64,000 nucleotides of DNA from a virus (Duplodnaviria > Heunggongvirae > Uroviricota > Caudoviricetes), in IMG/VR virus record IMGVR_UViG_3300006734_000990. One strand, 5' to 3'. Below, in pieces: positions 6,547 through 58,727 of the stretch (its first letter is position 1; each line of letters opens with the position of its first letter). Below the pieces are notes generated by a model that had not been told where the DNA came from, did no database searches, and saw only the letters and a list, made by a program, of their open reading frames with translations. Made by a program: the position numbers and the translations under genes.

Positions 6547-6671
6547 CTCCTGCCACAGCTTACTTTTCGCAGCTATGCCAGAGAATTTCAGATTACAAAT
6601 GCCAGCCGGTGTCTGCGGCAGTGATCGCAAACATCCCGGACCATGGAAAATTAGTAGCGCGCAGACTTTCC

Positions 6672-11136: not shown

Positions 11137-11174
11137 TCTACTTCCAGTAATTCAGAGGTTCTGGTGAGATCGAG

Positions 11175-11804
11175 TTAATCTGCAGCGCCATATACAGCCC
11201 GGCAAACTGCTTCGCATTTGTCCAGATCGAGATAGTCGTTCTCGTCCCGCACACCTGTCTCCATATCGATCCAGTAGTTGCGAGCTTTGATGCGGCTGCA
11301 GGCATCGGCGACATTCAACGGGTTCAACCCGCCCGCATATCCGACGAGGTTATCATCAGGAGCTTCAGGGTAGGCGTCCGGGCATGTGCCGCGCCCACCG
11401 CTTTGATCGAAAAGGAACTGCAGCCAGGAACCCGCCTCTCGCTTAGGAAAGGCATCACGGACCTGAACAATTACCGGCGTGAGTGTTTGCGCTGCGATAT
11501 TCCCAAGCACCTTCAGGTCGTACTCATGGGAAAGGAGATTTACCTGCAGGCGATTATGGCCGTAGGCTTCGCTGGGGAAAACGCCACTGTTGGCATAATT
11601 CGCAAAATCCTTGCAGCTATGTAGAGCCGTGCGGAGTTGCTTTCCCGCATCCTGGATTACGGCGGTATCGGGGTACCGGTTTTTACCAAGCTTGCCGCCG
11701 ATAAGGCACCCCCATTCGACGGGCCAACGCATTGAGATCTCGCGGCATCGCTTGAGATCGGTGCGGGCGTCAATTCCAGTGAATGTGATGAACTGTGGGG
11801 GCAT
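11175..11804 (-). CDS. phosphoribosylanthranilate isomerase (TrpF)-like TIM-barrel protein
   Basis: C-terminal DQSGGRG ... YAGGLNPLNVADA ... IDMETGVRDE parallels TrpF D.GQGGSG ... LAGGL..NV.EA ... LD.NSAVE. Confidence 0.45.
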   Translation of the reverse strand: MPPQFITFTGIDARTDLKRCREISMRWPVEWGCLIGGKLGKNRYPDTAVIQDAGKQLRTALHSCKDFANYANSGVFPSEAYGHNRLQVNLLSHEYDLKVLGNIAAQTLTPVIVQVRDAFPKREAGSWLQFLFDQSGGRGTCPDAYPEAPDDNLVGYAGGLNPLNVADACSRIKARNYWIDMETGVRDENDYLDLDKCEAVCRAVYGAAD

Positions 11805-11888
11805 GACGATGTGATCCGTTCTTAAAAGTGTTTTGCCGCAAAGCGGGCGCCTGGATTGGTCTCACCCATTAATTATGCGCATCTCTAC

Positions 11889-11926
11889 TTTTCGCAATGG
11901 TAAAAAGCCCCTATCTAAGGGGGTGA
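11889..11926 (+). promoter_or_regulatory. TTTTCGCAATG box followed by 9-codon uORF (MVKSPYLRG*) about 50 nt upstream of gene 11974
   Basis: Direct reading. Confidence 0.4.
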
Positions 11927-11973
11927 GGCAAAGCCGCATCAACCACGCTGCTGGCAATTAACAAGGAGTAGAC

Positions 11974-12885
11974 ATGGCAAATGATCGATATCTGGTAGCA
12001 CGTGGTGGACGCGCGAAAGAGGTTATGGAGAAGTGGCGTCAGGACTACCTATCGTCTCATAGACGTCTTGTCGGCTACATGGATGAGATCGGCGCCATCG
12101 GCTGCTTCCTGGAGACGTTCGAAAAGCCCTATGCCTTCAAGTTCCCCGGCGATGTGGCCCCGGAGGGTTGGACCAAGCCCGGCGTGCAGGGCGCGAGCCG
12201 TCCAAAGAAGACCAATAAGGCAGATAGTCAGCGGCTGGAAAATCTCTCTTGGTGTGAACCGCTTGAGATCATCGTGCCGCGCGAGTTGGGCTTGCCGGAT
12301 ATGATCAATGTAAACCGCGCGGGCGGGCAGGGGGCTGGCGAGAATTACTATGTCTTGCGGAGCGGCAATCATAAGGCCTTCACGGCACTCTGGACAGAGA
12401 ATGCCGATGGAACCCTTGGCGACATGATCCTCGTCACCCCGGATTATGCCCGTCGCAAGGTGGAGTTTGAACGCCAGAGCGATGTCATCGTCACCTGGCG
12501 GCCGGAAGGGACTGACCCGGGTATCGAGCTTGGTTTTGAAGAAGTCTCGAAAGCCGAGGTCGATCTGATATTTTCTCGGGTAAAGGCTGCTCGAAATGAC
12601 GTCGAGAATGACCCATATCGTCGGAGCGACCTGGTAGAGGTCTATGGTTTCCGCGCAGATGATCGTGGCACATTCGAGACCGAGGCACCGGTAAAGCTCA
12701 AAGAGCGCGCCGCACCGCTCCTTGCGGCTGGTCATGGTTTCGTTTTGTGGGACCCTGAAGATGATGAGGAGGGCCTGCTACTCAGCGGAGACAGCGAGGA
12801 GGAGCTCCGCGCCCAGTTCGAGGCCCATGCCCAGGTACACTTCGATCCACCGAAGCCCGCAGAGGCATCGGCGCCGGGCTTCTGA
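11974..12885 (+). CDS. hypothetical protein, family A (paralog of 14861-15508)
   Basis: N-terminal 120 aa alignable with 14861 product (RYLVARGGRAKEVMEKWRQDY / IYLIAEAGRPKQVLEQWREDL; FKFPGDVAPEGWTKPG / FKFPRNQQPEGWTKPG). Confidence 0.6.
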   Translation: MANDRYLVARGGRAKEVMEKWRQDYLSSHRRLVGYMDEIGAIGCFLETFEKPYAFKFPGDVAPEGWTKPGVQGASRPKKTNKADSQRLENLSWCEPLEIIVPRELGLPDMINVNRAGGQGAGENYYVLRSGNHKAFTALWTENADGTLGDMILVTPDYARRKVEFERQSDVIVTWRPEGTDPGIELGFEEVSKAEVDLIFSRVKAARNDVENDPYRRSDLVEVYGFRADDRGTFETEAPVKLKERAAPLLAAGHGFVLWDPEDDEEGLLLSGDSEEELRAQFEAHAQVHFDPPKPAEASAPGF

Positions 12886-13513: not shown

Positions 13514-13964
13514 GATGACAGGCGCCATCCCCAATCAGGACAACGTGACAAAGATTGTCGACGAACATGCCCTGGACGGCGATACGCCCCAGGCGCTCTT
13601 CAAGCAGGTCCATAGCTGCCTTGTCGAACTTGACCGGGATGTGCTGATCAACTTCGACTCCGGTTATCACGGCGTTGCAGTCAACGCGACGTTCCAAGGT
13701 GAGGCCGCGGATCTTCCACGGCCCTTGTTTGATGCACTCCACAAGCTCACCCCGCCGCTGCTTGCCTGCGAAATCGAAGACTGGCATGATCAAAAACAGA
13801 CCTCGGGCCGGTTGATGATCGGTCGCAATGATGGGGTATTTCTCGACTGCGAAGACATTGATGGTGAATGGGATTACCAGCGCTTTGTTGATCTCGATGC
13901 ATTGGTCGACATTCAGTTCCCAGAGCCTAAAGCCGACGCCGAGCCATTGCTGGTTCCAGAATAA
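13514..13964 (+). CDS. hypothetical acidic protein (150 aa)
   Basis: GGAG before ATG 13514; coding bias. Confidence 0.45.
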
Positions 13965-14020
13965 TTCAATCACACACCCAGGGATCGAATGCCTGGCATC
14001 TATACCGATAAGGACACAGA

Positions 14021-14824
14021 ATGGATTTTCGCAAGGTCATCTCACCCAAATCTCAGGCAGCTTCCGCGCGCCGGCGTGCGGCTGTCATGGCATTTCAAAA
14101 CGACACGCCTGAAGGGCAGGCGGCGACGCTACTGACTGCTGTACGCACCCTGCGCGAGAGCGGCGCCTTCTCCGACGATCCACGCTACAGCTACGACGAA
14201 TGGGCCCTCTATCGGGTCGTGCCCGAGCTGGCCATGAAACTTGATCCCAACATTGAACTGCAGGATGTCGAGAACCCGGATGAGGAAGAGCGCGTAGATC
14301 AGGTTACCTGGCTGCGCGGTGCGCCGGCAGAACGTCTTGAAAGCTCTGTGAAATCCATCATGGCAAACGCGTCTTTTTCACGGATCCGAGAAAGTGGTGA
14401 CGATTTGAACGATCTCGCGGACGCCACGTTCGGGTATAACACCTGCTACTTTTCGGTCGCTGCGGACACGGTCTTTCCGGGCAGCGCACCGTCGCGCGAA
14501 GATCTCGATACCCGTGATCCTCTGCCGGGCCAATTTGTGCTCTGCTGCCATAAGAGCGGCTATGAGCGGGTCATGAGCTACAGCGAAGACGCTGCTGAGA
14601 TCGACAAGGTCTACGACGCCCTTGTGCGCGTCACCTCTGGTGAAGAGCTTCGCGACGAGGATGCCTGGGTGCGGGAAAAGCTTTCCTGGTACCCGATGCT
14701 GAAGCAGGACGGGAAGAACGGCCGTGAGGGTCTGTTGTCAATCGAGATCCAGGATGCCTCTGGAGAAGTGCTGCGCCAGCACTCCCTTGAGCGTGAAGTT
14801 GATGAGACACCTGAGATGGCCTAA
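14021..14824 (+). CDS. hypothetical protein (267 aa)
   Basis: Long ORF, coding bias. Confidence 0.5.
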   Translation: MDFRKVISPKSQAASARRRAAVMAFQNDTPEGQAATLLTAVRTLRESGAFSDDPRYSYDEWALYRVVPELAMKLDPNIELQDVENPDEEERVDQVTWLRGAPAERLESSVKSIMANASFSRIRESGDDLNDLADATFGYNTCYFSVAADTVFPGSAPSREDLDTRDPLPGQFVLCCHKSGYERVMSYSEDAAEIDKVYDALVRVTSGEELRDEDAWVREKLSWYPMLKQDGKNGREGLLSIEIQDASGEVLRQHSLEREVDETPEMA

Positions 14825-22049: not shown

Positions 22050-23297
22050 TCACGGGGGCGCATCATGCGCCTCCGAGATTACCGCTACGAGGTCCTCAAT
22101 CGAGACCGAACGCTCTTTGCCGTTCATCTTCAGCATCACCTCGCCGCGCTCGACCTCACGCTTGCCGATTACCATCTGCACCGGGATCAGCTTATCCCGC
22201 ACCATGACAATCCGGCGGCCAAGCCCCTCAGACTGGTCAAAGAGGGCAGGGCGCAGCCCTGCGGCGCGCAGCTGGTCCATGACCGCCACCGCAGCATCGC
22301 GCTGGTCATGCCCGATCGGCAGCACAGCGACCTGTACCGGTGCCAGCCAGAGGGGCAGGCGGCCTTCGCAATGCTCCAGCAGGATGCCGATGAAGCGTCC
22401 GAGCGAGCCAAGCACCGCGTGGTGCAGCATCACGGGCTGATGTTTGGCGCCGTCTTTCCCCACATAGGAAGCGTCCAGGCGGCCTGGCAGGACCATGTCG
22501 AGCTGAATGGTGCCGCACTGCCACGAACGGCCCTTCTTGTCGCGCAAGGCGAACTCCAGCTTCGGACCGTAGAATGCGCCTTCGCCGAGCTGCAGCTTTG
22601 GGTCGAGCCCACAGGAGAGCGCCGCTTCCAGCAATTCCTGCTCTGCATGATCCCAATCCGCATCATTGCCGGCGCGCTTTTCTGGACGCAGCGACAGCGC
22701 CACTTCGAAGTCCGTAAACCCCAGAGCAGCATAGACCTCCTTCAGCAGTTCAACGAAGCGCGCGACTTCGCCACGGACCTGATCGGGATCGCAGATCACA
22801 TGGGCATCGTCCTGCTCAAATGCCTTGGTGCGCATCAGCCCATGCATGGAGCCCGATGCCTCATCGCGGTGGCACTGGCCAAACTCGGCAATGCGCATCG
22901 GCAGATCACGCCAGGAGCGCAGGTCCGAATTGAAGATCTGCAAATGACAGGGGCAACTCATCGGCTTCAGCGCCATATCGCGGCCGCCTTCCTCACGCGC
23001 CGGCACGGCGAACATGTTGTCGCCGAACTTCTCCCAATGGCCCGACGCTTCCCAGAGGGACTGGGGCAGCAGCTGCGGCGAGCGCACCTCGCCGTAGCCC
23101 AGGCTGCGCATGCGGTTACGGATGTAGTCCTCGAGCTCGCGGTAGATCTGCCAGCCAGCGGCGTGCCAGTAGATCATGCCCGGCGCATCTTCCTCGATGT
23201 GGTAGAGATCGAGACGGCGTGCCAGCACACGATGATCCAGAGGATCCATGCCTTGTTCGCGGGAGATGTCGAGGTTCTGTGCGTTGTTCTTATTCAT
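22050..23297 (-). CDS. threonyl-tRNA synthetase-like protein, catalytic plus anticodon-binding domains only (N-terminal TGS/editing domains absent), 416 aa
   Basis: DHRVLARRLDLYHIEEDAPGMIYWHAAGWQIYRELE ... matches E. coli ThrRS from about residue 240 ([26 protein letters not shown]...); class II motifs and C-terminal ABD present; AAGGA before ATG 23297. Confidence 0.8.
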   Translation of the reverse strand: MNKNNAQNLDISREQGMDPLDHRVLARRLDLYHIEEDAPGMIYWHAAGWQIYRELEDYIRNRMRSLGYGEVRSPQLLPQSLWEASGHWEKFGDNMFAVPAREEGGRDMALKPMSCPCHLQIFNSDLRSWRDLPMRIAEFGQCHRDEASGSMHGLMRTKAFEQDDAHVICDPDQVRGEVARFVELLKEVYAALGFTDFEVALSLRPEKRAGNDADWDHAEQELLEAALSCGLDPKLQLGEGAFYGPKLEFALRDKKGRSWQCGTIQLDMVLPGRLDASYVGKDGAKHQPVMLHHAVLGSLGRFIGILLEHCEGRLPLWLAPVQVAVLPIGHDQRDAAVAVMDQLRAAGLRPALFDQSEGLGRRIVMVRDKLIPVQMVIGKREVERGEVMLKMNGKERSVSIEDLVAVISEAHDAPP

Positions 23298-23345
23298 CGT
23301 CTTGGTCCTTTGTGGGGTATCAAATTGGACGCGAGACAATAAAAA

Positions 23346-30110: not shown

Positions 30111-30587
30111 ATGGATAAGAATACCAAGATCATCGTCGCGGGCACTGCCGCAACAGCAGTCAGCTTTTTCCTGCCATGGATTAACACTGGTTTCGGCGGC
30201 ATCGCGCCCTCGAATATTTTCGATATGGGTCCTGATCTCATGACTTTGGGCACATATGTTTTCCTTGGCAGCTTCCTCCTCGCTGCAATCACATGTGTTG
30301 TGTATGCGACAGGTAATGGGAATGCGAAGCTGGCAGTCGCGACTGGGGTGCTGCCCTTCGCGATTTTGGTCATCGCGATCCTGAAAACGGAGTCGCTGAT
30401 CACTGAGGCCTTGGGATCCAACTTCAATTGGAGTGACTTCGGGCAGCTGTTCCAAGTGCTTGGCATCGGAGTGGTGGCCTATTTCGTCGGCTCACTGGTG
30501 ACTGTGATTACCGGCTTTATCGCATTCCATGCAGAAGAGGACGCGGTGAAGTCGGCAGGTGTAGAGCCCAGCGGCGATGTCAGCTGA
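30111..30587 (+). CDS. integral membrane protein (158 aa)
   Basis: Four hydrophobic helices. Confidence 0.55.
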   Translation: MDKNTKIIVAGTAATAVSFFLPWINTGFGGIAPSNIFDMGPDLMTLGTYVFLGSFLLAAITCVVYATGNGNAKLAVATGVLPFAILVIAILKTESLITEALGSNFNWSDFGQLFQVLGIGVVAYFVGSLVTVITGFIAFHAEEDAVKSAGVEPSGDVS

Positions 30588-30639
30588 CCATTGTGCCTAT
30601 ATGGTGAGTAAGTCATCGTAATTAAACTCGCGATACACG

Positions 30640-30676
30640 CCCGGTGGGATTGATCCGCCGGGCATTTTTGCACCCA
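30640..30676 (+). terminator. GCCCGGTG-loop-CGCCGGGC hairpin followed by ATTTTTG
   Basis: 8-bp stem with one GU pair then U-run. Confidence 0.5.
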
Positions 30677-30891
30677 ATCACTGTTTTTTCGCATTGCCTT
30701 TCTGAAACGGATTTCCTAACATCCCCGCATGACACAGGATAAACCCATCTGCGCGATCAATTGGTGGCTGCCTCTCTGAGGCGGCCCAATTCCTGTGACC
30801 AACCCCAGGACCGGCCGCGTGATGCGGCTTGTGATGTCCTGAAAGACCCCTCCCATCATGCGGCTGTCCTCTCTCCATAAAGGACAAGACC

Positions 30892-32028
30892 ATGCAAGAT
30901 CTCTCTACCCTCGAAGGCAAGACCATCCTCACCGGCGACCGGCCCACAGGTCCGCTCCATCTCGGCCATCTGGCCGGGACCCTTCAGGCGCGCGTCGCCC
31001 TGCAGGACAAGAACGACGTGACCATTCTGGTGGCTGATATGCAGGCCCTGACGGATAACGCCGGGCGCGCTGCGGATGTGGCCGCCAATGTGCGCGAGGT
31101 GGTACTCGATTATATCGCGGCCGGCATCGATCCAGACCGGGTCACCATCGTGCGCCAGTCCGAACTGCCAGCCCTCAATGAGCTCACCATGCTCTATATG
31201 AACCTGATCACCGTCCCGCGGCTCATGCGCATCCCGACAATCCGTGAGGAGATCGCCCAGCGCGGCTTTGGCGATGGTACCCCGGCGGGCTTTCTCTGCT
31301 ACCCGGTTAGCCAGGCGGCCGACATCACAGCCTTTGGCGCTGATATCGTGCCCGCGGGCGCCGATCAGGCACCGCTTGTCGAGATCACCGGTGAGATCGC
31401 GGGCAAGGTGAACCGCATGGCAGGGCGCAACTTGCTGGTCACCCCGACCTTGATGCAGTCCAATGCACCGCGGCTGCCGGGCATCGACGGGGCCGGCAAG
31501 ATGTCCAAATCCGCCGGCAATGCGATCGCGCTGCGCGATGGACCAGATGAGATCCGCGCGGCCGTCATGCGGATGTTCACTGATCCTGGCCATCTGAAGG
31601 TCTCTGACCCCGGCAAGGTGGAGGGTAATGTGGTCTTTGCTATGCTCGACGCCTTTGATCCGGATGCCGCAGCTGTAGAGGATCTCGAATCCCAGTACCG
31701 CGCCGGCGGGCTCGGAGACATGGTCCTGAAGCGTCGTTTGGACGGAATCTTGCAGGAGCTGCTGGCGCCGATGCGTGCGCGGCGCGCGGAGCTCGCCTCC
31801 GATGCAGGCTTGGTAGACCATATCCTCGAGGAGGGCCGTAAGCGCGCCCATGTGACCACCATGGAGACCTTGGGGGATGTGCGGCGCGCCTTTGGGTTGG
31901 AAGGGCGCCCAGGGCGCTCTGCGGCACTCACAGAGCTTGTGAGCTTGGGAGAGGACTGCGAGGCGGGAAAGGTCCACGAGGGGCTCGTGGACGCCATTTC
32001 TGCGTCACATACGCGCTTCTCTGCCTGA
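30892..32028 (+). CDS. trpS: tryptophanyl-tRNA synthetase (about 40-aa C-terminal extension relative to compact bacterial TrpRS)
   Basis: HIGH-type PTGPLHLGHLAG, TrpRS hallmark ILVADMQALT (VDxHAIT region), GKMSKSAGNAI KMSKS loop; co-linear with Bacillus TrpRS throughout. Confidence 0.8.
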   Translation: MQDLSTLEGKTILTGDRPTGPLHLGHLAGTLQARVALQDKNDVTILVADMQALTDNAGRAADVAANVREVVLDYIAAGIDPDRVTIVRQSELPALNELTMLYMNLITVPRLMRIPTIREEIAQRGFGDGTPAGFLCYPVSQAADITAFGADIVPAGADQAPLVEITGEIAGKVNRMAGRNLLVTPTLMQSNAPRLPGIDGAGKMSKSAGNAIALRDGPDEIRAAVMRMFTDPGHLKVSDPGKVEGNVVFAMLDAFDPDAAAVEDLESQYRAGGLGDMVLKRRLDGILQELLAPMRARRAELASDAGLVDHILEEGRKRAHVTTMETLGDVRRAFGLEGRPGRSAALTELVSLGEDCEAGKVHEGLVDAISASHTRFSA

Positions 32029-32060
32029 ACAGCTGCCGATTGCGAAGTGAGGGAGGCGTT

Positions 32061-32426
32061 TTAATGCGCTAAGAGCTCTGAAATGGTGCCTTCTTCACCT
32101 GCTCCATCGATGGATTTAACCTCGGCGTAAGCAGAACCGTCGGAAATCTGTGCCAGCGCAATAGACAAAGCTTCCTTGGCATTTGATGCATGTGTTTGAG
32201 CACTGATCACGACTGTGAACTGCTGATCATCCTGTTCAGCGCCGGCTTGCTTGGCCTCACCCTTTACAGCGGTGCCAACAGAGATGATGTCATAGCTGTC
32301 GACATTGAAGCGATCGCGGCCAATATCCAAGATGCTGACAAGGTCTACTTCTGGATCGTATACATTTTCAGGATCGAGCCGATCGCTTGGATCGAAGGTG
32401 ATGCGGGCGGTAATTGTCTGCTGCAT
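32061..32426 (-). CDS. hypothetical acidic protein (121 aa)
   Basis: ORF, coding bias. Confidence 0.45.
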   Translation of the reverse strand: MQQTITARITFDPSDRLDPENVYDPEVDLVSILDIGRDRFNVDSYDIISVGTAVKGEAKQAGAEQDDQQFTVVISAQTHASNAKEALSIALAQISDGSAYAEVKSIDGAGEEGTISELLAH

Positions 32427-32489
32427 TGATCTGCTCCTCTAGGCCAGCTTTAGGCAAATACGAAAGTCCGGGGGTCTCGGTGCTCAGTT

Positions 32490-33302
32490 TCACCGCAGGC
32501 TTTTTGAGCCTGTTGTTTCGGCGTGGTCAGAAATAACTTCCTCAGCGGCCCATCCGGACATTGGGAACTCGACGCAGCCAGTTGCTGCTATCATGCAGCA
32601 AAGCCGGAAAATCTCTTCTTGATCCGAGTCCGACATATCTGCCATGTCCTTGGCGGTGGTGGACGTGTCGATGCCGATGCGCGCGCAGGCTTCCTCCATC
32701 CTGGCCAGCGCATAGGATCGCGCTTCCAGAACCGTTTGTCCTGTAATGGCCATCACCGGAATACAGAGATCTACAGCCTCACCCGGCAGGTTCCTCGTAA
32801 AATTGAAAAGTGCGAAAGGACGCACATCCCCTTTCGATACATCACCCACCACGCCCTCGTTCATAATCGATTGCAAGCACATGGAGTTCAAAATCAGGAC
32901 GGCTGCCTCATCCGCCTCCTCGCGGGTTGTATGGGGCATGCTCAGAGGGGTGCCCATTACGTCGGAGACGCCGGGGGGCACGTTTTTCAGCAAAAGATCC
33001 GCGTACCAGCCTCTCGAGGTGCGGTAGACAACCAATGCGCGGAAGTTATCAACGACAATAAACCGCTGCGTGGCCATCGCCCGCGTCGTGTTGACCTTCA
33101 TCTGAATATTCGGGTCTCGGATAGCTTTTCGGGCATAGGCGCGGGCCTCGGGCAACAGGCGCTTAAGGCGGGCTCGCCCGTCTTTCATTTGCTTGTCGGT
33201 GTAGCGCATCTTCCCTCCAGTTTCACTCGTATCGATATAGGCAGATGAAACCCGTAATGTTAAATGGTAATCCTGTACCGTTTTTCGCATGGCATAATTC
33301 AT
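32490..33302 (-). CDS. hypothetical protein (270 aa); N-terminus MNYAMRKTV coded by ATGCGAAAAAC box
   Basis: ORF; start ambiguous. Confidence 0.45.
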   Translation of the reverse strand: MNYAMRKTVQDYHLTLRVSSAYIDTSETGGKMRYTDKQMKDGRARLKRLLPEARAYARKAIRDPNIQMKVNTTRAMATQRFIVVDNFRALVVYRTSRGWYADLLLKNVPPGVSDVMGTPLSMPHTTREEADEAAVLILNSMCLQSIMNEGVVGDVSKGDVRPFALFNFTRNLPGEAVDLCIPVMAITGQTVLEARSYALARMEEACARIGIDTSTTAKDMADMSDSDQEEIFRLCCMIAATGCVEFPMSGWAAEEVISDHAETTGSKSLR

Positions 33303-33375
33303 TTTTGGAATGAGTTGCCTGTAAGGCTCTGACCTGTGATGCTCCTATGGAACGCCGCAAGGGTAATATCCGGCT

Positions 33376-34464
33376 ATGAAATCGCGGTACTGCACCAACG
33401 CCCAAGGTGAATTGATCGACGTCGATGATCTGACGGTGGAGCGCCGCAATGCCCGCGGCCCCTACATCTGCCTGGGCTGCGGCAATGCCATGCTGCCGGT
33501 CCTCGGCGAGATCCGGGTTCACCACTTCCGTCATGCGTCAGACGCAATTATCGATTGCGCCCATGAGACATATCTCCACCGCGCCGCAAAGATGGCTGTG
33601 GTTGCAGGCTTCACCGCGGCCTGCCGGGATGGGAGGCCCTACAGGCTCACCCGCAACCGCCAGATCAGGTGTATGTCGGCCGCCCAGTTTTTCCCTGAAG
33701 GTTGTAGCAAGTCAGAGGCACCGGAAGTCTTTGATCTGACACAATGGCTCGACTGTGCCCGCGAGGAGATCGGCGTCGACGGGTTCATCGCAGATGTGCT
33801 GCTAAGCAAGAAAGGGCAGGCGGCCCGGCTGCTTGTCGAAATTGAAGTCACCCACCCCTGTGATCCCGCAAAGCTGGCCAGCGGGCTGCCAATTCTGGAG
33901 ACGAAGGTCTCTACCGAGAAAGACATCGACAGGCTACGACGAGGCATCACGATCGACAGTGATCGTGCGCGCGGCTTCAATCTCACGCCCCTCACGGAAC
34001 GAAAGGTGGATCGCTGCAAGATTTGCCCCGTTGAGCAATCCGTTTTTGTCGTGTTTCGAAGCGGGAAAGTGCTGCTCACGACGCAGAGTTGCCGCGCATT
34101 GAAGAAGGTCCTGGCCAAACCGAGCATTGTTCATTGGGAAGTCGTGACCAATGAGTTCTCACGCTACAGGTTCATAGAGCGTTACGATGCCATTGTCCGC
34201 CGTGCGCATTACGATAGAGGCATTCCCATGAGAACATGCCTGCAGTGCAGATATGGTGGCATCAGCAGCTCAGGTGAAACGCCAATGGTGTGTTTCAAGC
34301 AGCGCGGCCGCACTCTGCCGACAGGGGTTAACAAGGCAACGGACTGTTTGGAGTATTCTCCGATACCGAGCTACGAAGAACTTTTGTCAGTCCGTCAGCG
34401 GCAACTGCAAGGGCGGCCGCCAAATCTGGATGACCCTGAGAGCGATAGTCTTATCGAGGACTGA
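33376..34464 (+). CDS. competence protein CoiA-like family protein
   Basis: N-terminal zinc finger plus HxxHxxH: YICLGCGNAMLP...IRVHHFRHAS; mid-region GFIADVLL...LLVEIEV nuclease-like core. Confidence 0.5.
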   Translation: MKSRYCTNAQGELIDVDDLTVERRNARGPYICLGCGNAMLPVLGEIRVHHFRHASDAIIDCAHETYLHRAAKMAVVAGFTAACRDGRPYRLTRNRQIRCMSAAQFFPEGCSKSEAPEVFDLTQWLDCAREEIGVDGFIADVLLSKKGQAARLLVEIEVTHPCDPAKLASGLPILETKVSTEKDIDRLRRGITIDSDRARGFNLTPLTERKVDRCKICPVEQSVFVVFRSGKVLLTTQSCRALKKVLAKPSIVHWEVVTNEFSRYRFIERYDAIVRRAHYDRGIPMRTCLQCRYGGISSSGETPMVCFKQRGRTLPTGVNKATDCLEYSPIPSYEELLSVRQRQLQGRPPNLDDPESDSLIED

Positions 34465-34617
34465 GTTCCTTTCCTTCTATTTGGTTTTTCTTCGTCTTGA
34501 GTAATGATGGACTGAATGAGAATAGAACTGCTGTTTTATACCAGATACACATAAGATGGTTCACAGGTGGCACTTAAACGCTATAATGCGCCTTGTGTGA
34601 CACATAAAGGGTAACGG

Positions 34618-34992
34618 ATGGACAAGCGTAAGATCAACGACACACTCCCTGACCAGGTGATGTCTCGGTTGTCGGTGTTCGGGTCTGATATTTCCGCCGC
34701 GCGGCGTGCGCGCAACATCAGCCAAGCTGATCTGGCGGATCGGATCAACGTCGCGCGCCGCACGGTTGTCAGGATGGAGCAGGGTGACGCGCGTGTCAGT
34801 TTCAGCGCCTATGTCTCCGTCGCCTGGGTGTTTGGCTTGGAGGGTAGGCTCTTTGATGCCTTCAGCTCGGAGACAGACCCGGTACAAATTCGCGAAGCGC
34901 GTTTGAACATCCCACGGCGCATCGATGCACCTCGCGGTGCCAGGCACACTGCTGAGACAGTCTCGGCCGACGACAAAGGATTGGATTTCTAA
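34618..34992 (+). CDS. hipB: HipB-like XRE-family HTH antitoxin
   Basis: ISQADLADRINVARRTVVRMEQG helix-turn-helix; TAATG overlap with hipA. Confidence 0.7.
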   Translation: MDKRKINDTLPDQVMSRLSVFGSDISAARRARNISQADLADRINVARRTVVRMEQGDARVSFSAYVSVAWVFGLEGRLFDAFSSETDPVQIREARLNIPRRIDAPRGARHTAETVSADDKGLDF

Positions 34993-36326
34993 TGGAACAC
35001 AAGGCTATCGTATTTCTCGAACTGCATGGCGAAACTGTTCCTGTGGGACGACTGGTAATTACAGAAGACGGGCGTTATTCGCGCTCGGATTTCGACTACG
35101 GCCGCAAGTACCTCGAGCGCCCGGACGCCGTGGCGATCGACCCCGTTCAGATGCCGCTGGGAAAAGAACACCTGCGCACCCATGAGGACTTCACCCTCTT
35201 CAACGGGATCCGGGATGCAGCGCCTGACGCCTGGGGCCGCAAGCTCATCGATCTTTACATGAAGCGCACCGAGGGGCGGGCCGCTTCCGAGGCCGAGTAT
35301 CTGCTGGTCTCCCAGCGCGGGACCCGGATCGGTGGCGTTCAGTTCGGCCCCACCACGGAAGGGCCTGGCCAGATCCTCGATGTGGGCCTACCCGATGTCT
35401 CCTCTGACCTCGGCACGCTCGAAGCCTTCCAAGAGATGGTCGACACCTTCAAAGCCGGCCGTCATGTGCCGGACCACCTGCTTGATCACGTCTCCCCCGG
35501 TGCAGATCTCGGTGGTGCGCGCCCCAAGGGCACGGTGACGATCAATGATCACCCCTGGCTGGCCAAATTCGGCATCGAGAGCGACAGCATCACTATGGCC
35601 GCGGCCGAGGCTGGCTGCCTGGATCTCTGTGAGATGGCAGGACTGTCGGTTTGCGAGCGCGACATCATCGATGTGGCAGGCCGCCCGACCTTACTGTTGA
35701 AACGCTTTGACCGTGAACCCGATGAGAGCGGCAAGCTCCACCGCAGGCATATGATCTCCGGCCTGACCTTGCTGGGCGCCCATGAGATGGACCGGGCCGC
35801 TTCGGGATATGCAGATCTTTATGATGGCATGCGCCGCTTCGGCGCGGCAGACGATGCCGGAGAGACGATCTACCGGCGCATGGTGATGAATGTCCTGTGC
35901 GGCAATACAGATGATCATTACCGCAACCATGCCTTCCTGCTCAATGATGAGGGGCTCTATGTGCCAAGCCCGGTTTATGACGTCACGCCCTCCACTGGCT
36001 TCTCGACCAGCCGCAGCCTCTTCATGCATCTGGGTAAGGCCGGCTGCGGCCGGGATGCGACGCTGGAGAATGCGGTGGCGGGTGCTGCGAGCCTCGGTGT
36101 GTCCCAGGCGCGCGCGACAGAAATCGCTAATGATCTGAGCCATATGGTGGGTAAGAGTTGGCGCCGCGTTCTGTCGGACCGCGGGGCGACGGAAGCGGAC
36201 CTTGAGACGTTGGAGACGAGCTTCTCGGAAGCTGGCCGGTCTGTAGGTCTGGACCACAGCGCAGTGTTCAATCCTTTCGACACTCCGACGCATGACCGCA
36301 AGGGTCCCGCTTTGCCAAATCCGTAA
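34992..36326 (+). CDS. hipA: HipA-family serine/threonine kinase toxin
   Basis: 444 aa; catalytic-loop motif NTDDHYRNHAFLL (HipA N.DDH.KN.S), N-terminal HipA_N-like region; operon with HTH gene. Confidence 0.8.
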   Translation: MEHKAIVFLELHGETVPVGRLVITEDGRYSRSDFDYGRKYLERPDAVAIDPVQMPLGKEHLRTHEDFTLFNGIRDAAPDAWGRKLIDLYMKRTEGRAASEAEYLLVSQRGTRIGGVQFGPTTEGPGQILDVGLPDVSSDLGTLEAFQEMVDTFKAGRHVPDHLLDHVSPGADLGGARPKGTVTINDHPWLAKFGIESDSITMAAAEAGCLDLCEMAGLSVCERDIIDVAGRPTLLLKRFDREPDESGKLHRRHMISGLTLLGAHEMDRAASGYADLYDGMRRFGAADDAGETIYRRMVMNVLCGNTDDHYRNHAFLLNDEGLYVPSPVYDVTPSTGFSTSRSLFMHLGKAGCGRDATLENAVAGAASLGVSQARATEIANDLSHMVGKSWRRVLSDRGATEADLETLETSFSEAGRSVGLDHSAVFNPFDTPTHDRKGPALPNP

Positions 36327-36342
36327 GGCGTAACACCTCAAG

Positions 36343-36945
36343 CTAAGGCGAAGGCGCATCTTCCTGCGCCTGTTCGCGCCTCTTCTGGGCTTCCTGCTTC
36401 AGCGTGGCCACGCCATCCTTCACCTGCTGTAGGATCTCCTCTTTCGAGAACTGCTGGTCGACGCCATCCGCATAGCGTTGCTTGAACCCCGCAGGAAAAT
36501 GCAGCTTCACCGGGATGCCCAAGGCATGGGCCGCGATGCCACCAGCCATGTCGGCCCCGGTCTGGCCGCCGGAAATCACCTTGGCGATCGGCCAATGCTT
36601 ATGGACTGGGCTCAGGATTTCCAGGAGGCGGATATTCACGAACTCCTGGGTAAACCCATTCCGGTTCATCGTTTGCATGCCGTTGCCAGCGACATTGATG
36701 ACCGGGTTCTTCAGATCGCGGTCCCGCAGCGTGCGGTACAAAAGACGCGCGGCATCGAGGCCGTCCATGGACAGGGGCAGGGCGAGGAACTTGTCTCCGG
36801 CCGCCTTATGGGTGAGGCGCTCACCGCCGGTCTTGTAGTTCGCAGCCACCGCAATCGTCAGATCCCCTTCATGGGCATTGGCATAGGTCCGCGGGCCGTA
36901 GCCTGAAGACTTATGCGCGATGATGTCGATCGGGGCTGCACTCAT
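36343..36945 (-). CDS. SLOG-superfamily / putative molybdenum-carrier (YpsA-like) Rossmann protein
   Basis: VISGGQTGADMAGGIAAHALGIPV glycine-rich nucleotide-binding loop typical of MoCo_carrier/SLOG. Confidence 0.5.
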   Translation of the reverse strand: MSAAPIDIIAHKSSGYGPRTYANAHEGDLTIAVAANYKTGGERLTHKAAGDKFLALPLSMDGLDAARLLYRTLRDRDLKNPVINVAGNGMQTMNRNGFTQEFVNIRLLEILSPVHKHWPIAKVISGGQTGADMAGGIAAHALGIPVKLHFPAGFKQRYADGVDQQFSKEEILQQVKDGVATLKQEAQKRREQAQEDAPSP

Positions 36946-54693: not shown

Positions 54694-54769
54694 GTCTCCT
54701 TAGTTCACCCGGTTAGAACAGCAGCCTTTCAAGCAGCAGAAACGAGTTCGAGACTCGTAGGAGATGCCA
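54694..54769 (+). tRNA. tRNA-Glu (anticodon UUC)-like, 76 nt, encoded CCA, G1-U72 wobble and an A-A mismatch in anticodon stem
   Basis: Manual fold: acceptor GTCTCCT/AGGAGAT, D-arm GTTC-ACCCGGTTA-GAAC (G18G19), anticodon loop CTTTCAA, 4-nt variable loop, T-arm ACGAG-TTCGAGA-CTCGT. Confidence 0.65.
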
Positions 54770-54782
54770 AAATCACCACCAC

Positions 54783-54858
54783 GTCCGCATAGTTCAATTG
54801 GTTAGAATAGTGCCCTCTCAAGGCACAGACGCGAGTTCAATCCTCGCTGCGGATGCCA
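54783..54858 (+). tRNA. tRNA-Glu (anticodon CUC), 76 nt, encoded CCA, G1-U72 wobble
   Basis: Manual fold: acceptor GTCCGCA/TGCGGAT, D-arm GTTC-AATTGGTTA-GAAT, anticodon stem GTGCC/GGCAC loop CTCTCAA, 4-nt variable, T-arm GCGAG-TTCAATC-CTCGC. Confidence 0.7.
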
Positions 54859-54874
54859 AATTCAGGAGACCAAG

Positions 54875-55225
54875 ATGTTGTCACTGTCGCGCTTTTTTAA
54901 ACGTCGCCCCAAGGCACCTGAGCTGCCTCGCTTTCCAGACCGGGCCGAGGCGGCTGCATGGATGCGCAGCAAGATTGTTCAGACGCGACAGAGGTCACCT
55001 CACGAGGCCCAGCGCCTCTTTGATCCGACATCCGGAGATTACCTGCCCGCATCCGTCCATACAGGATCGTATTTCGATGAAGACGCTCTAGTGGCATATC
55101 GAGCCCTCAAAGCCGAGTTCCCAGATCTTGTTGCGGCCTCATTCAATGAGCCAATGGCATTCTGCGTCTCGCGCATCGCGGACCCGGAAGATCTTCATGC
55201 TCATGCACATCGAATTGGCGTCTGA
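54875..55225 (+). CDS. hypothetical protein (116 aa)
   Basis: ORF between tRNAs and GluRS-like gene. Confidence 0.4.
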   Translation: MLSLSRFFKRRPKAPELPRFPDRAEAAAWMRSKIVQTRQRSPHEAQRLFDPTSGDYLPASVHTGSYFDEDALVAYRALKAEFPDLVAASFNEPMAFCVSRIADPEDLHAHAHRIGV

Positions 55226-55238
55226 AAGGATTTTCACA

Positions 55239-56093
55239 ATGACCTACACAACCCGAGTAGCCCCGTCTCCAACTGGCGACTTTCACATCGGCACAGCCCG
55301 CACCGCCTATTTCAACTGGCTCGCCGCGCGCGCCTCTGGCGGTCGCTTCCTCCTGCGCATCGATGACACCGATCTCGCGCGCAACAACGATGCCTCGATC
55401 AGCGTGATCCATGATTGCCTCGATTGGTTGGGGCTTACGCCTGACGCCGTCTACCGTCAGTCGCACCGGCGCGACATCTATGATGCCGCGGCTACAAAGC
55501 TTCTTGATGCAGGGCTGGCAGTCCGTGCCGACAATGGTGCTGTGCTGATGAAGGGTGGGGCAGCCGCGCCGTGGCACGATCTGATTTCCGGCGACCAGCT
55601 GCCCAGCTCCAAGGCGCATGACCTGGCGCGCGATCAGGTGCTCATCAAAGCTGACGGTATGCCGGTCTATCATTTCGCCTCAGTGGTCGACGATATCGAT
55701 CTGCGCGTGAACCTGGTGATCCGGGGCATGGACCATGTGACCAACACTTTCCGTCATGCGGGGATCTACGCTGCCCTCGGTGCGCCAATGCCGGATTTTG
55801 CCCATGTCGGCCTGATCACCATGGGTGGCAAGAAGATGTCCAAACGCGACGCCGCGGCAAGCCTTCTGGGGTACCGCGATGACGGTGTCGATCCCGATGC
55901 CATGCTGAACTATCTGCTGCGCGTCGGCTGGGGCCCGCGCCAGGATGACAAGTCGATGAAGATCATCGATCGGGCTCGGGCGGTTGATCTGTTTCTGGAT
56001 CACGGCAAGATGCGGTCCTCGCCGGCCGCGATGGATCTGGCAAAACTTGCCAGCTTCGATCGGAAGTACAAGCACATGAAACGGCCTGCATAG
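55239..56093 (+). CDS. glutamyl-tRNA synthetase catalytic domain protein lacking the anticodon-binding domain (GluQRS-like architecture, GluRS-like sequence), 284 aa
   Basis: APSPTGDFHIGTARTA (HIGH), VYHFASVVDDIDLRVNLVIRGMDH, GKKMSKRD (KMSKS), LNYLLRVGW - co-linear with E. coli GltX residues 1 to about 300; stops shortly after. Confidence 0.75.
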   Translation: MTYTTRVAPSPTGDFHIGTARTAYFNWLAARASGGRFLLRIDDTDLARNNDASISVIHDCLDWLGLTPDAVYRQSHRRDIYDAAATKLLDAGLAVRADNGAVLMKGGAAAPWHDLISGDQLPSSKAHDLARDQVLIKADGMPVYHFASVVDDIDLRVNLVIRGMDHVTNTFRHAGIYAALGAPMPDFAHVGLITMGGKKMSKRDAAASLLGYRDDGVDPDAMLNYLLRVGWGPRQDDKSMKIIDRARAVDLFLDHGKMRSSPAAMDLAKLASFDRKYKHMKRPA

Positions 56094-56129: not shown

Positions 56130-58727
56130 ATGCGCGCTGAAACTACAGTCAGCCAATATTGTGAGATCAAGATGTTCAGATTCCTATCGTCGCTCCTGCC
56201 AGAACGGAAGCCCCAGAAAGAGGCAGAAGAAGCCCATCCGGGCGGCCAGACATTGGTCGAGGCCTTCGAGATGTATCGCTATGGGGGCCTGAACGAGGCA
56301 GAGCCTTCCGAAGAGAAGCCTTCCGAAGAAGAGGGCGCCCCTTGGACGCCGGATACAGAGGTGGCTACGCTCGAGGAAAAGGTACTCCCTGCCACGCCCT
56401 CACCATCAATGGCCGCTTCGCTTTTCCGCAGGGCGCCGCGCGCTGAACCTGAACGCGAGCCCGAGATCGTCGAGAGCGAGAAGGGCGTGCGCTTCAAGCG
56501 CATCCCGGTTTCGGATTTCATCGCCAACGACCCCATGATGAAAGACCTCAACCCCTTCCTTAAAATGGAACCTGTGGCGAAAAGCCCTGAGGAGTATACG
56601 CTCTTCAGAACCCTGGCGGGGAAACATGATTTCGACCTGGCAGATCCAGAGATCGACGAGGTCCTGAAGGGCTGGGAGAAGGGGTACGCCGACTACATCG
56701 AGGACGCGCGTATCTTTGTCTCCTACAAGGATCAGTTTCCCGGCTTCCGCCGTCTGATCATCGCAGGCGATAACCTGTCGCGCCGCAGCAAGGCTCTGTC
56801 GGTCATCGCGGTAGATAACGACGGCGCGCTCATCAACAAGATGTTGAAGCCCGTTAATCAGGACGTCGCTCCGCTCAAGTCGGTCGCCGAGGCATTGGAG
56901 GTCATTTACAACGGTCATCCTGATTGGCAGATCAGCTTCGGCCGGAATGACATCGAATTGAACCGTCACACAAATGCTGCGCGTGCCATGGCGCAGGAGG
57001 GATTGGAGTTCCTTAAACCCGGTCGTTCCGCCCTGACGATTGGTAGAACACTAGCGCATCGCAGATTGATTGATGGCAAGATGCACTATCAGGCCAGGCA
57101 TATGCTGAAAAATAAAGCCGACAGCCGTCTCAATCTGATGCGCTGGGCCATCAGCGATGCCATGGATCCAGAAGTCCTACGCATCATGCGCGGAACCGGT
57201 CTCACCAAACTGGGGCATGCACAGTGGCTCTGTGGGACCCATGGCAGCACTCTGCTCGATCCGGACACGGTCAACACCGAAGTTGCCATAGCCCGCCAGC
57301 AGGCTGTGAAGGCCTATCCGATCCTCGCCAGGGCGATGCATGAAGAGCCCGTGCTTCGGGATGCTATCGACGCCCGCGCGCCCCTTGCACCAGTGATCGC
57401 AGATTTTCTGCGCTGTGATGTGAAGTATGTGAAGCGTCTGCAAGGGCTGACCTGGCAGCGTGCCGGCGCGAGCCCGCGCGATCCAATGGAGGAGATCAAG
57501 ACCCTCCTAAAGCTTCCCTACGACAGATTACCCACCAGCCGTAAGGAGCATCGCTTCCTGAAAGAGCTGAAGAAGTTTGGCAAAGGGATCTTTGGGACCT
57601 CCCTGTCGGAAACGATGCACCGCGTGGCGCGGGACGGTGATCCTTACAAGATGATGGACAAGATCCTCGCCACCCCGGCCGAGCAGGTAAAGGATGCGGT
57701 GAGCTACCTGGCCAATACGCTCTATGTGCCCGCGACGATGAACAAGATACGTGAAGTTGCCGAGGAGCGCGGCCTTGAGTGGAACGAGAGTATTTCGCAA
57801 CGCGGATATTCTCCGAACAACAATGATTATGTTTCGCCGAGTGATAAGGCCCTCAAAGCTGTACTGGAAGACTTCAAGATCTCCGAACTGCTGGAACTCT
57901 CGACCCGGTATCACCGTAACATCCATCGCTATGCTGATAAGGTACAGAAGATCAGTACGGATGAAGTATGGGAGCCGCTTGTCGGCGAGATCGATCTTGG
58001 GAATGGACTGCACGCACGTGAGTTAAACAGCGCCAAGGCGCTGACCAAACAGGGTCGGTCTGAAAACCACTGCGTGGGTGGTTACCTCAATACGGTTCTT
58101 AAAGGACGCTCCAAAGATGCGCGGCTCATCTTTTCACTCGAAACCAAAGATGAGATTTCGAGCACAGTTGAGCTGGATGTCTTGGTCAAATCCCGCACCG
58201 TAAAGCATGAGGATGGCAGTGAGCGTGAGGTGCCTTATCTTCACTGCGAGGTGCGTCAGAACTATGCCTATGGAAATGAGGAGCCCAGTGACGCGGCTGA
58301 GGAAGCCGCAAACCGGCTCGCCAAGCACATCCAAACCTTAGAGGTCCCAGATTTCGCGCGCTATACCGATGGGCTTGCGGAGGCCCGGCATGAGCAGGAT
58401 ATGATGAGGCTGATGCCGCTGTCGGTGCGCTCGGCCGGCTACAATCCATGGGACCGAGAACACCTTCAGGATGCCTGGGACGAGCTAAGTGCATTGCTGC
58501 CGCGTAAAATTCGCAAATCCGGACTTGATAAGTTTATCGCCGGGTCAGATATCAAAGGAGAGGAGTTCAAGTTCGTTGAGGGCAGTGATCCCCGAAATAT
58601 CTGGGATCGCCTTGCAGAGGAAGATGCTGCCGAACTTGATATTGAAGACGTGCAGGAGGGTGAGGTCGATGACCCTTTCGCAGAAGATGAAGAACCGGAA
58701 CATGATATCATGTGGGCAGCGCAGTGA
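56130..58727 (+). CDS. large hypothetical protein (865 aa), possible PcfJ-like domain
   Basis: ENHCVGGYLNTVL...ARLIF resembles PcfJ-family conserved core; otherwise unassigned. Confidence 0.55.
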   Translation: MRAETTVSQYCEIKMFRFLSSLLPERKPQKEAEEAHPGGQTLVEAFEMYRYGGLNEAEPSEEKPSEEEGAPWTPDTEVATLEEKVLPATPSPSMAASLFRRAPRAEPEREPEIVESEKGVRFKRIPVSDFIANDPMMKDLNPFLKMEPVAKSPEEYTLFRTLAGKHDFDLADPEIDEVLKGWEKGYADYIEDARIFVSYKDQFPGFRRLIIAGDNLSRRSKALSVIAVDNDGALINKMLKPVNQDVAPLKSVAEALEVIYNGHPDWQISFGRNDIELNRHTNAARAMAQEGLEFLKPGRSALTIGRTLAHRRLIDGKMHYQARHMLKNKADSRLNLMRWAISDAMDPEVLRIMRGTGLTKLGHAQWLCGTHGSTLLDPDTVNTEVAIARQQAVKAYPILARAMHEEPVLRDAIDARAPLAPVIADFLRCDVKYVKRLQGLTWQRAGASPRDPMEEIKTLLKLPYDRLPTSRKEHRFLKELKKFGKGIFGTSLSETMHRVARDGDPYKMMDKILATPAEQVKDAVSYLANTLYVPATMNKIREVAEERGLEWNESISQRGYSPNNNDYVSPSDKALKAVLEDFKISELLELSTRYHRNIHRYADKVQKISTDEVWEPLVGEIDLGNGLHARELNSAKALTKQGRSENHCVGGYLNTVLKGRSKDARLIFSLETKDEISSTVELDVLVKSRTVKHEDGSEREVPYLHCEVRQNYAYGNEEPSDAAEEAANRLAKHIQTLEVPDFARYTDGLAEARHEQDMMRLMPLSVRSAGYNPWDREHLQDAWDELSALLPRKIRKSGLDKFIAGSDIKGEEFKFVEGSDPRNIWDRLAEEDAAELDIEDVQEGEVDDPFAEDEEPEHDIMWAAQ

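Follow-up and report, generated by a model that had tools for sequence, protein, structure and literature searches.

A tryptophanyl-tRNA synthetase gene (trpS, encoding TrpRS) and a hipBA toxin-antitoxin operon lie close together in a 64,000-nucleotide stretch of DNA, IMG/VR record IMGVR_UViG_3300006734_000990, referred to below as the window. We propose, with a probability of about 0.6, that they are two independent, functional and long-standing residents of one very large mobile element. An earlier sequence-only reading had placed the TrpRS gene less than 3 kb from hipBA, and our analysis agrees: all the genes are where it had put them, 2,589 bases separate the end of trpS from the start of hipB, and this gap holds three genes, for proteins of 121 and 270 amino acids (aa) on the minus strand and of 362 aa on the plus strand. 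The same reading described an XRE-type helix-turn-helix (HTH) antitoxin overlapping a 444-aa HipA kinase. Family matches, the single base shared by the hipB stop and the hipA start (TAATG) and an intact catalytic loop bear this out. The CoiA-like gene that it saw near trpS exists, as the 362-aa gene; the likeness to CoiA is weak and below the cut-off, and the gene lies downstream of trpS, ahead of hipBA. Its statement that the HipA/HipT family targets GltX and TrpS holds in the literature: Hip kinases target Ser239 of GltX, the glutamyl-tRNA synthetase (GluRS), and Ser197 of TrpS (PMC6581861), and HipA2 of Caulobacter crescentus targets TrpS (PMC7029023, PMC8262856).

trpS and hipBA within one mobile element

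The closest homologues of the window TrpRS and HipA (74–97% identical) were found on contigs with the same gene order, which are equally unannotated. Large related contigs were inspected for about 10 kb either side of the matches. Across seven close variants (the window, the L002 type, L007/L071, L008, L010, L027 and L072) a hip kinase gene lies 0–4 genes from trpS. The genes in between are variable, as the interval from trpS to the cpYpsA-type gene beyond hipBA contains 0–4 unrelated genes and its content differs in each relative. Synonymous divergence (dS) from the window was 0.71 for hipA and 0.60 for trpS in L002, 0.96 and 0.93 in L008, and 1.11 and 0.94 in L010. Since the two values match for each relative, hipA and trpS have been co-inherited. 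A recent independent insertion of hipBA, which the sequence-only reading had named as a way in which the association could fall, was rejected on the same ground.

Farther out the linkage is lost. L011 and L012 encode a TrpRS 74% identical to that of the window and have no hipBA, and the Cereibacter-labelled L029 has a TrpRS of about 67% identity and no hip gene within 10 kb. L026, L031 and L033 encode HipA proteins of 66, 60 and 56% identity with no TrpRS gene within 10 kb, and L033 carries tandem hip genes without a TrpRS gene nearby. We estimated the chance that a random operon would lie this close to a TrpRS or GluRS gene in a 64-kb window at about 0.16, and to any of three aminoacyl-tRNA synthetase (aaRS)-type genes at about 0.24. 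In a window this dense in aaRS genes, the proximity of trpS and hipBA is not statistically remarkable. Moreover, between trpS and hipBA lie two convergent genes and one on the same strand, and hipBA has a private promoter; co-transcription of the two is therefore unlikely.

The sequence-only reading considered it undecidable from sequence whether this TrpRS is a housekeeping or an element-borne copy. We find the matter largely decided in favour of an element-borne gene, because the 64-kb setting lacks ordinary chromosomal core genes, is syntenic with relatives on large contigs and is absent from the GTDB representatives. About 80 of the roughly 90 open reading frames (ORFs) of the window were scanned for families; most had no match, no ordinary chromosomal core gene was found, and orphan ORFs (ORFans) abound throughout. 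A TrpRS scan of the 185,579 GTDB representative genomes gave a best match of 61%, and none of the hits was the element. Among the top 120 TrpRS matches at ≥60% identity only two carry Rhodobacterales labels (Cereibacter and Paracoccus), and the Cereibacter-labelled gene lies in similar ORFan-rich DNA. From this scarcity we infer that trpS was not recently copied from a host housekeeping gene. The mobile-element setting further suggests that it coexists with a separate housekeeping TrpRS in the same cell.

Relatives reside on contigs of 109–642 kb, including a 642-kb JGI (Joint Genome Institute) contig, Ga0591050_0000001, a 302-kb contig and a 376-kb marine-sediment contig, LAZR01000009.1. Those of 426–529 kb are in isolate-labelled assemblies: the 529-kb contig JBMGNR010000005.1 belongs to GCA_048984855.1, labelled Pseudosulfitobacter pseudonitzschiae, and a 426-kb contig to Sulfitobacter sp. 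1A13353. Further relatives are labelled Sulfitobacter, Leisingera, Defluviimonas and Cereibacter. The window is one part of an element of possibly 0.5 Mb or larger, a very large and ORFan-rich mobile element that is for the most part uncharacterised and belongs to marine Rhodobacterales (Sulfitobacter/Pseudosulfitobacter group). Exact-protein look-ups with the window TrpRS and HipA returned no record, megablast of 28–40 kb against plasmids and phages gave no match, and IMG/VR scans with TrpRS, HipA and a HipA alignment detected only HipA homologues of roughly 30% identity on small viral contigs.

As to its class, the element may be a huge phage, a megaplasmid or an integrated island. Very large size, mostly hypothetical genes, its own aaRS and tRNA genes, and anti-defence and toxin-antitoxin cargo are shared with huge phages (PMC7162821) and with the pMEGA megaplasmids of Enterobacteriaceae, in which about 80% of the genes are hypothetical and which carry hisS and as many as 208 tRNAs (bioRxiv 10.1101/2025.09.30.679422). 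Unlike these, the element belongs to a Rhodobacterales host group, gave no sequence relative on searching IMG/VR, INPHARED, PLSDB and the representative genomes of GTDB, and shows neither virion nor replication or conjugation genes in 64 kb. Specifically, no capsid, portal, terminase or tail gene was detected with PHROGs among 60 window proteins and ten proteins of L026 and L033, and the search for replication, partition and conjugation genes in the window yielded a sub-threshold PcfJ-like match only. Acb1, free-standing GIY-YIG and HNH genes, and a radical S-adenosylmethionine (radical-SAM) protein common with Caulobacter jumbo phages point towards phages; carriage in isolate-labelled assemblies, a share of about 80% hypothetical genes and the presence of its own aaRS genes point towards pMEGA-like megaplasmids. 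A literature search on phage-encoded HipA, roseobacter megaphages and Sulfitobacter elements with aaRS genes found nothing relevant. The element family appears to be absent from current phage and plasmid collections; it is arguably more notable than the hipBA–trpS pair and merits its own description.

The synthetase and the kinase operon

The TrpRS contains the HIGH motif (as HLGH, residues 23–26) and the KMSKS motif (residues 203–207), both invariant in an alignment of 27 clade members. Ser205 (KMS205KS) is the equivalent of E. coli TrpS Ser197 (KMS197KS). The sequence-only reading had raised a possibly kinase-resistant TrpRS and pointed to this residue. As the serine is unchanged in all 27 members, the target site gives no sign of resistance, and loss of the target serine was rejected as an explanation. 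The ratio of non-synonymous to synonymous divergence (dN/dS) of trpS against its relatives is 0.09–0.17, indicating purifying selection.

By relatedness the enzyme is of the auxiliary TrpRS II type. Its best solved relative is Deinococcus radiodurans TrpRS II (2a4m/1yi8), with an E-value of ~3e-110 over residues 12–338, compared with only 1e-24 to 1e-31 for E. coli or Bacillus-type housekeeping structures. Genes of this type occur as extra trpS copies on 170 plasmid records, and where Salmonella assemblies carry both, identity between the TrpRS-II type and the second TrpRS is only about 27%. Differences from D. radiodurans TrpRS II are the lack of a nearby nitric oxide synthase gene, the C-terminal tail and a location amid partial translation machinery. 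We read the element TrpRS, on its invariant motifs, its purifying selection and a confidently modelled core, as an active TrpRS-II-type synthetase.

The tail of roughly 40 residues noted in the sequence-only reading was found at residues 339–378, and it is conserved in the closest relatives with the end motif EGLVxAxSAS(R/H)xxFS. It occurs in P0001–P0007 and L027, and clade members farther away have a short tail or none. In the AlphaFold2 (AF2) model, which has a mean predicted local distance difference test score (pLDDT) of 81.8 and a confident core, the tail forms two helices of low confidence (pLDDT 45–58). We also considered whether the tail is a motif common to other proteins of the element; this was rejected, as the motif was seen on TrpRS alone in the DNA of the window and the relatives compared.

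HipA keeps its catalytic residues. A glycine-rich loop (G174–K179, with Lys179), D307, H309, R311, N312 and D330 are invariant in 31 homologues, and D307-x-H309-x-R311-N312 aligns to the HipT/HipA catalytic loop. Sequence similarity to solved Hip kinases is low. With a profile of the HipA clade, matches to the structures of HipT and HipA ranged only from 1e-11 to 1e-16, a single-sequence search of the PDB found the Shewanella enzyme only (E 4e-4), and the Pfam Couple_hipA N-domain model did not match. The AF2 model (pLDDT 84.3) gave full-length E. coli HipA as the top Foldseek matches, with template modelling (TM) scores of 0.62–0.72 over ~450 columns at ~19% identity. The full-length superposition identifies a long HipA and not a split HipS/HipT. 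With a dN/dS of 0.02–0.10 for hipA, motifs and model together indicate that this is a full-length, catalytically intact but divergent HipA under strong purifying selection.

HipB is likewise conserved, with hipB orthologues upstream of hipA in six relatives (L002, L008, L010, L026, L027 and L031) and a dN/dS of 0.05–0.09. In NCBIfam it comes closest to the Y4mF antitoxin subfamily, which is of HipB type (TIGR03070; 38.8 bits, under the cut-off of 71.65), and its C-terminal extension carries a conserved DPVQxREARL ... GLDF pattern. The hipBA promoter is the only strong promoter-like site within 30400–36600 (6.2 kb), and L002, L008, L010 and L027 show conservation of the block in which it lies. 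An operator search at hipBA gave no clear inverted repeats and detected only an 8-nt direct repeat. This repeat, ACACATAA, flanks the promoter at 34547–34554 and 34600–34607, 53 nt apart, and its first copy is not conserved in L002. It may be a candidate HipB binding site, or a chance occurrence.

Comparison with studied systems places the operon among ordinary two-gene modules. As in HipBA of E. coli K-12 and Shewanella, whose HipA phosphorylates GltX Ser239, the genes overlap in the order hipB–hipA, HipB is of the XRE-HTH type and the promoter is private; the full HipA fold (3dnt, 3tpt and 4pu5), the DxHx(K/R)N loop and the Mg-binding Asp are also shared. The window operon differs in the low identity of its HipA to the E. 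coli protein, in lacking a Couple_hipA match, in its location on a giant mobile element and in a longer HipB (124 aa) with the conserved extension. C. crescentus HipBA2 resembles it in its alphaproteobacterial setting; its kinase HipA2, reported to phosphorylate TrpS, is also 444 aa long (PMC8262856). A tripartite system like HipBST of E. coli O127, in which HipT phosphorylates TrpS Ser197, was rejected: there are two genes only, no hipS, and a full-length kinase with its own N-domain, compared with the roughly 335-aa HipT.

Proposed independent residence and its alternatives

If trpS and hipBA are independent residents, trpS would belong to a partial translation toolkit of the element, together with a threonyl-tRNA synthetase (ThrRS) core, a GluRS core with two tRNA-Glu genes, and Pth2. 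Such genes would supplement or back up the charging capacity of the host. The hipBA operon would act as a self-contained, autoregulated type II toxin-antitoxin module with its own promoter and translational coupling, in which HipB represses the operon and neutralises HipA. Upon loss of HipB, the kinase would modify a class I aaRS, by analogy GltX or TrpS, by phosphorylating the serine in its KMSKS loop, and translation would arrest. Kinase target, toxicity, neutralisation and biological role, which may be maintenance of the element or exclusion of competitors, are all drawn here from studied Hip systems. The neighbourhood itself would reflect that trpS and hipBA both flank an insertion hotspot before cpYpsA, with an order inherited in one sub-lineage.

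Several observations weigh against independence. A hip kinase stays near trpS in seven of seven close variants despite the turnover of genes between them, and of its three aaRS-type genes, two encode TrpRS and GluRS, the two families known as Hip targets. HipA is conserved more tightly than trpS, an unusual trait in toxin-antitoxin cargo that can be dispensed with. Only the lineage with adjacent hip genes has the long TrpRS tail, a pattern that is phylogenetically confounded. The HipA clade is only about 19% identical to E. coli HipA, its candidate targets are named by analogy, and extra TrpS copies suppress TrpS-targeting Hip kinases (PMC6581861, PMC7029023). The nearness of hip genes, the tail pattern and this suppression also speak for the main rival, a coupling by target replacement or buffering, in which HipA would hit host TrpS and/or GltX, and the element TrpRS and GluRS core with tRNA-Glu would be insensitive or provide added capacity. 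Carriers of the element would keep translating, whereas cells that lose it, or competitors, would not, and the TrpRS tail could aid insensitivity. Three Hip lineages at one locus (element-type, HNH-fused and canonical), a TrpRS-II-type enzyme so distant from the second TrpRS of Salmonella, the presence of both known Hip target types in the window (PMC6581861), and the finding that Hip kinases are counteracted when TrpS or GltX is overproduced (PMC6581861, PMC7029023) would also fit. However, the entire KMSKS loop with Ser205 is unchanged, the GluRS core keeps KMSKR, a conventional HipB antitoxin is present, the linkage is lost in L011, L026, L029, L031 and L033 (in L033 despite tandem hip genes), chance proximity is at 0.16–0.24 and no co-transcription signal was seen. 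We hold such a coupling to be fairly unlikely. A toxin combined with its replacement target, where HipA cripples host Trp and/or Glu charging and the tailed TrpRS and the GluRS core with tRNA-Glu sustain translation, is distinctly unlikely; if true, it would be a form of addiction or host takeover whose logic differs from that of classical toxin-antitoxin systems. The sequence provides no evidence that TrpRS and HipBA work together, and their coupling is a testable minority hypothesis. Since related DNA is found in isolate-labelled Pseudosulfitobacter and Sulfitobacter assemblies, protection by mobile-element aaRS genes against aaRS-targeting kinases, or cooperation with these, could be tested at the bench.

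Alternatively, HipA could be the takeover kinase of a lytic huge phage that shuts host aminoacylation and imposes a stringent-like state, with HipB as a timing repressor and not an addiction antitoxin. The Acb1 anti-CBASS homologue, the radical-SAM protein (44% identical to Caulobacter and Brevundimonas jumbo phage proteins), the PurA/PurZ-like enzyme matching phrog_1211, the free-standing GIY-YIG and HNH genes, Phage_lysozyme2, release factor 1 (RF-1) and SmpB in relatives, and the conservation of HipA down to 56–66% identity are in line with a phage. Yet virion genes are missing from the proteins scanned, carriage in isolate-labelled assemblies suggests stable maintenance and the operon has the architecture of a canonical autoregulated toxin-antitoxin module, which makes the takeover kinase quite improbable. 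We give equally little credence to a specialised TrpRS unrelated to Hip, serving resistance to TrpRS inhibitors (indolmycin-type) or the charging of modified tryptophan. Its closest solved relative is an auxiliary enzyme and its type is found on 170 plasmid records. The neighbouring ThrRS lacks an editing domain, an architecture that occurs in self-resistance copies. Auxiliary TrpRS are known for indolmycin resistance and nitro-Trp chemistry (PMC9437257), but no nitric oxide synthase or antibiotic biosynthesis gene is present among the roughly 80 ORFs scanned, the gene sits among general translation genes and its active site is, at the level of motifs, like that of ordinary TrpRS. Finally, the window could be ordinary chromosome, with TrpRS as the single housekeeping enzyme and a chromosomal hipBA nearby by chance. 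This would suit an intact TrpRS under purifying selection, and the related contigs were viewed for about 10 kb per side only. It is hardly credible given the lack of core genes, the paucity of family matches, the truncated ThrRS and GluRS variants, the ceiling of 61% identity among the representative genomes, the mere two Rhodobacterales-labelled TrpRS among the top 120 matches, and a G+C content of 48–64% in 1-kb blocks, mostly in the mid-50s.

Each part taken singly belongs to a known kind, whether the HipBA module, the auxiliary-type TrpRS or the giant element rich in translation genes. Of note is the setting, a divergent, strongly selected HipA clade long carried by aaRS-rich giant elements of marine Rhodobacterales; in the collections and literature searched, neither this setting nor the combination has been described. 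These elements encode TrpRS and GluRS types, and no enzyme families other than these two have been shown to be targets of Hip kinases.

The variable interval, the relatives and other genes of the window

Across relatives, the hotspot between trpS and cpYpsA contains ORFans, the CoiA-like gene, GIY-YIG genes, an ApaLI-type endonuclease, a glyoxalase, a second canonical hipBA and an HNH-HipA replacement. The cpYpsA gene on its far side is 86–94% identical in L002, L007, L008, L010, L071 and L072. The 121-aa ORFan recurs in L007/L071 only, and the 270-aa ORFan has orthologues of 62–78% in L002, L007 and L008 and is absent in L010 and L027. The CoiA-like gene is found in L007/L071 (70%) and L072 (83%) and is absent from L002, L008, L010 and L027. 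In L007 and L072 it adjoins GIY-YIG-type genes. It had no NCBIfam, PADLOC or PDB sequence match and did not reach the CoiA domain threshold; it is probably a selfish nuclease-type gene. A PADLOC scan of ten proteins around the locus gave nothing meaningful.

The hip genes themselves vary at this site. In L007 (6290–7993, minus strand) and L071 (~11150–12340) hipBA is replaced by a gene on the opposite strand for a 567-aa HNH-nuclease/HipA fusion without HipB. The fusion is 47% identical to the window HipA and is annotated too in Sulfitobacter litoralis and Sulfitobacter sp. 1A13353; its architecture was not found among the Hip families listed in PMC8262856. L072 encodes a 238-aa HipB (13767–14483, minus strand) in which two HipB units are fused in tandem within one chain, possibly a single-chain dimer, with a downstream HipA 94% identical to that of the window. 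Tandem hip kinase genes, in which a canonical Couple_hipA-type hipBA directly adjoins the element-type hipA, are present in L010 (11106–14682) and L033 (8281–11404), and in L010 both directly follow trpS.

More distant relatives carry arginyl-tRNA synthetase (ArgRS), cysteinyl-tRNA synthetase (CysRS), RF-1, SmpB, SecY and a phage-type lysozyme (Phage_lysozyme2). Two Cereibacter sphaeroides-labelled contigs, L031 (3940–5307 and 11291–11764, both minus strand) and L029 (2292–3692 and 5437–6273, both minus strand), show such translation and phage-type genes within ORFan-rich DNA. Their gene set comprises SecY, SmpB, DsbB, dUTPase, LuxR-type regulators, CysRS, split RF-1 fragments, an ATP-dependent DNA ligase and phage-type lysozyme. 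The L033 contig is 1,824,351 bases long (ERZ25070530), and the 260-kb L026 comes from the same sample; distant HipA (56%) and TrpRS (68%) homologues were reported from a contig of the same 1.82-Mb length. Nearly all of the inspected L033 stretch lacks annotation, and one of its genes encodes a PKD-repeat protein of 5,466 aa. In L026, six paralogous genes form an array, with matches to phrog_9049, a giant phage protein family.

Table 1. Features of the trpS–hipBA locus and of the surrounding window, by position.
Feature	Position	Strand	Basis or remark
RlmN/Cfr-like radical-SAM protein	5662–6630	-	40–44% identical to Caulobacter (CcrColossus, CcrPW) and Brevundimonas jumbo phage proteins
Acb1-type anti-CBASS (cyclic-oligonucleotide-based anti-phage signalling system) protein	9224–9691	-	61.7 bits vs cut-off 27; anti-defence gene typical of phages
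ThrRS, catalytic and anticodon-binding domains only, no TGS/editing domain	22050–23339	-	tRNA-synt_2b E 9e-46, HGTP_anticodon
trpS, TrpRS, 378 aa	30892–32028	+	PF00579 E 3.7e-47; TIGR00233 trpS 224.6 bits vs cut-off 176.75
TrpRS C-terminal tail, residues 339–378	31906–32028	+	past last residue aligned to solved TrpRS structures
ORFan, 121 aa, variable cargo	32061–32426	-	Pfam, PADLOC: no match
ORFan, 270 aa, convergent with trpS	32490–33302	-	Pfam, PADLOC: no match
362-aa protein, weak CoiA N-terminal-like zinc-finger region, variable cargo	33376–34464	+	CoiA_N E 5e-4, 20 bits vs cut-off 26.3
Sigma-70-like promoter of hipBA (TTCACA, 16 nt, TATAAT)	34560–34587	+	11/12 consensus positions
hipB, XRE-type HTH antitoxin/repressor, 124 aa	34618–34992	+	HTH_3 E 6e-8
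hipA, HipA-family Ser/Thr kinase, 444 aa	34992–36326	+	HipA_C E 7e-39
cpYpsA-type SLOG-domain protein, 200 aa	36343–36945	-	PF12694 E 5e-8; far flank of variable interval, stable
Pth2-type peptidyl-tRNA hydrolase	42677–43144	-	PF01981 E 5e-13; NF003314 E 1e-10, below cut-off
NrtR-type NUDIX/winged-helix regulator	47988–48683	-	
Adenylosuccinate-synthetase (PurA/PurZ-like) homologue, 515 aa	51660–53207	+	N-terminal extension ~100 aa
tRNA-Glu UUC and tRNA-Glu CUC, tandem	54694–54769 and 54783–54858	+	ARAGORN; Rfam tRNA 52.8 and 64.9 bits
GluRS catalytic core without anticodon-binding domain	55239–56093	+	tRNA-synt_1c E 3.6e-57; KMSKR kept
865-aa protein, sub-threshold PcfJ-like region	56130–58727	+	
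RTX calcium-binding repeat protein, 499 aa	62081–63580	+	

The remaining translation genes of the window are partly reduced forms (Table 1). ThrRS aligns to E. coli ThrRS residues 229–616 (E 8e-121) and is conserved beside the locus in relatives; from its domain content it is expected to lack proofreading of Ser-tRNA-Thr. The GluRS core scores 252 bits with TIGR00464, below the cut-off, and matches GluRS structures at E 2e-53 over the catalytic domain only. Its likely start, read from the sequence, is the ATG at 55239, the ORF being listed from 55128. Within 54694–56093 the tandem tRNA-Glu genes are followed by a small ORF and then by the GluRS core, which is GluQRS-like in size and nearer to GltX in sequence. 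The tRNA-Glu pair and the core may form a dedicated enzyme–tRNA set. The Pth2 gene is conserved in L002, L027 and L071–L074.

Other cargo is of mixed affinity. The PurA/PurZ-like protein matches phrog_1211 ('2-aminooxy adenylosuccinate synthetase', PurZ-type) at E 2e-56, and in NCBIfam it scores higher with PurA (134 bits) than with PurZ (38 bits). When nine concatenated element proteins were compared with phages by tblastn, only the radical-SAM and PurA-like proteins found matches, never in one record. The RTX protein, the PcfJ-like protein and the NrtR regulator look more like cellular or plasmid cargo.

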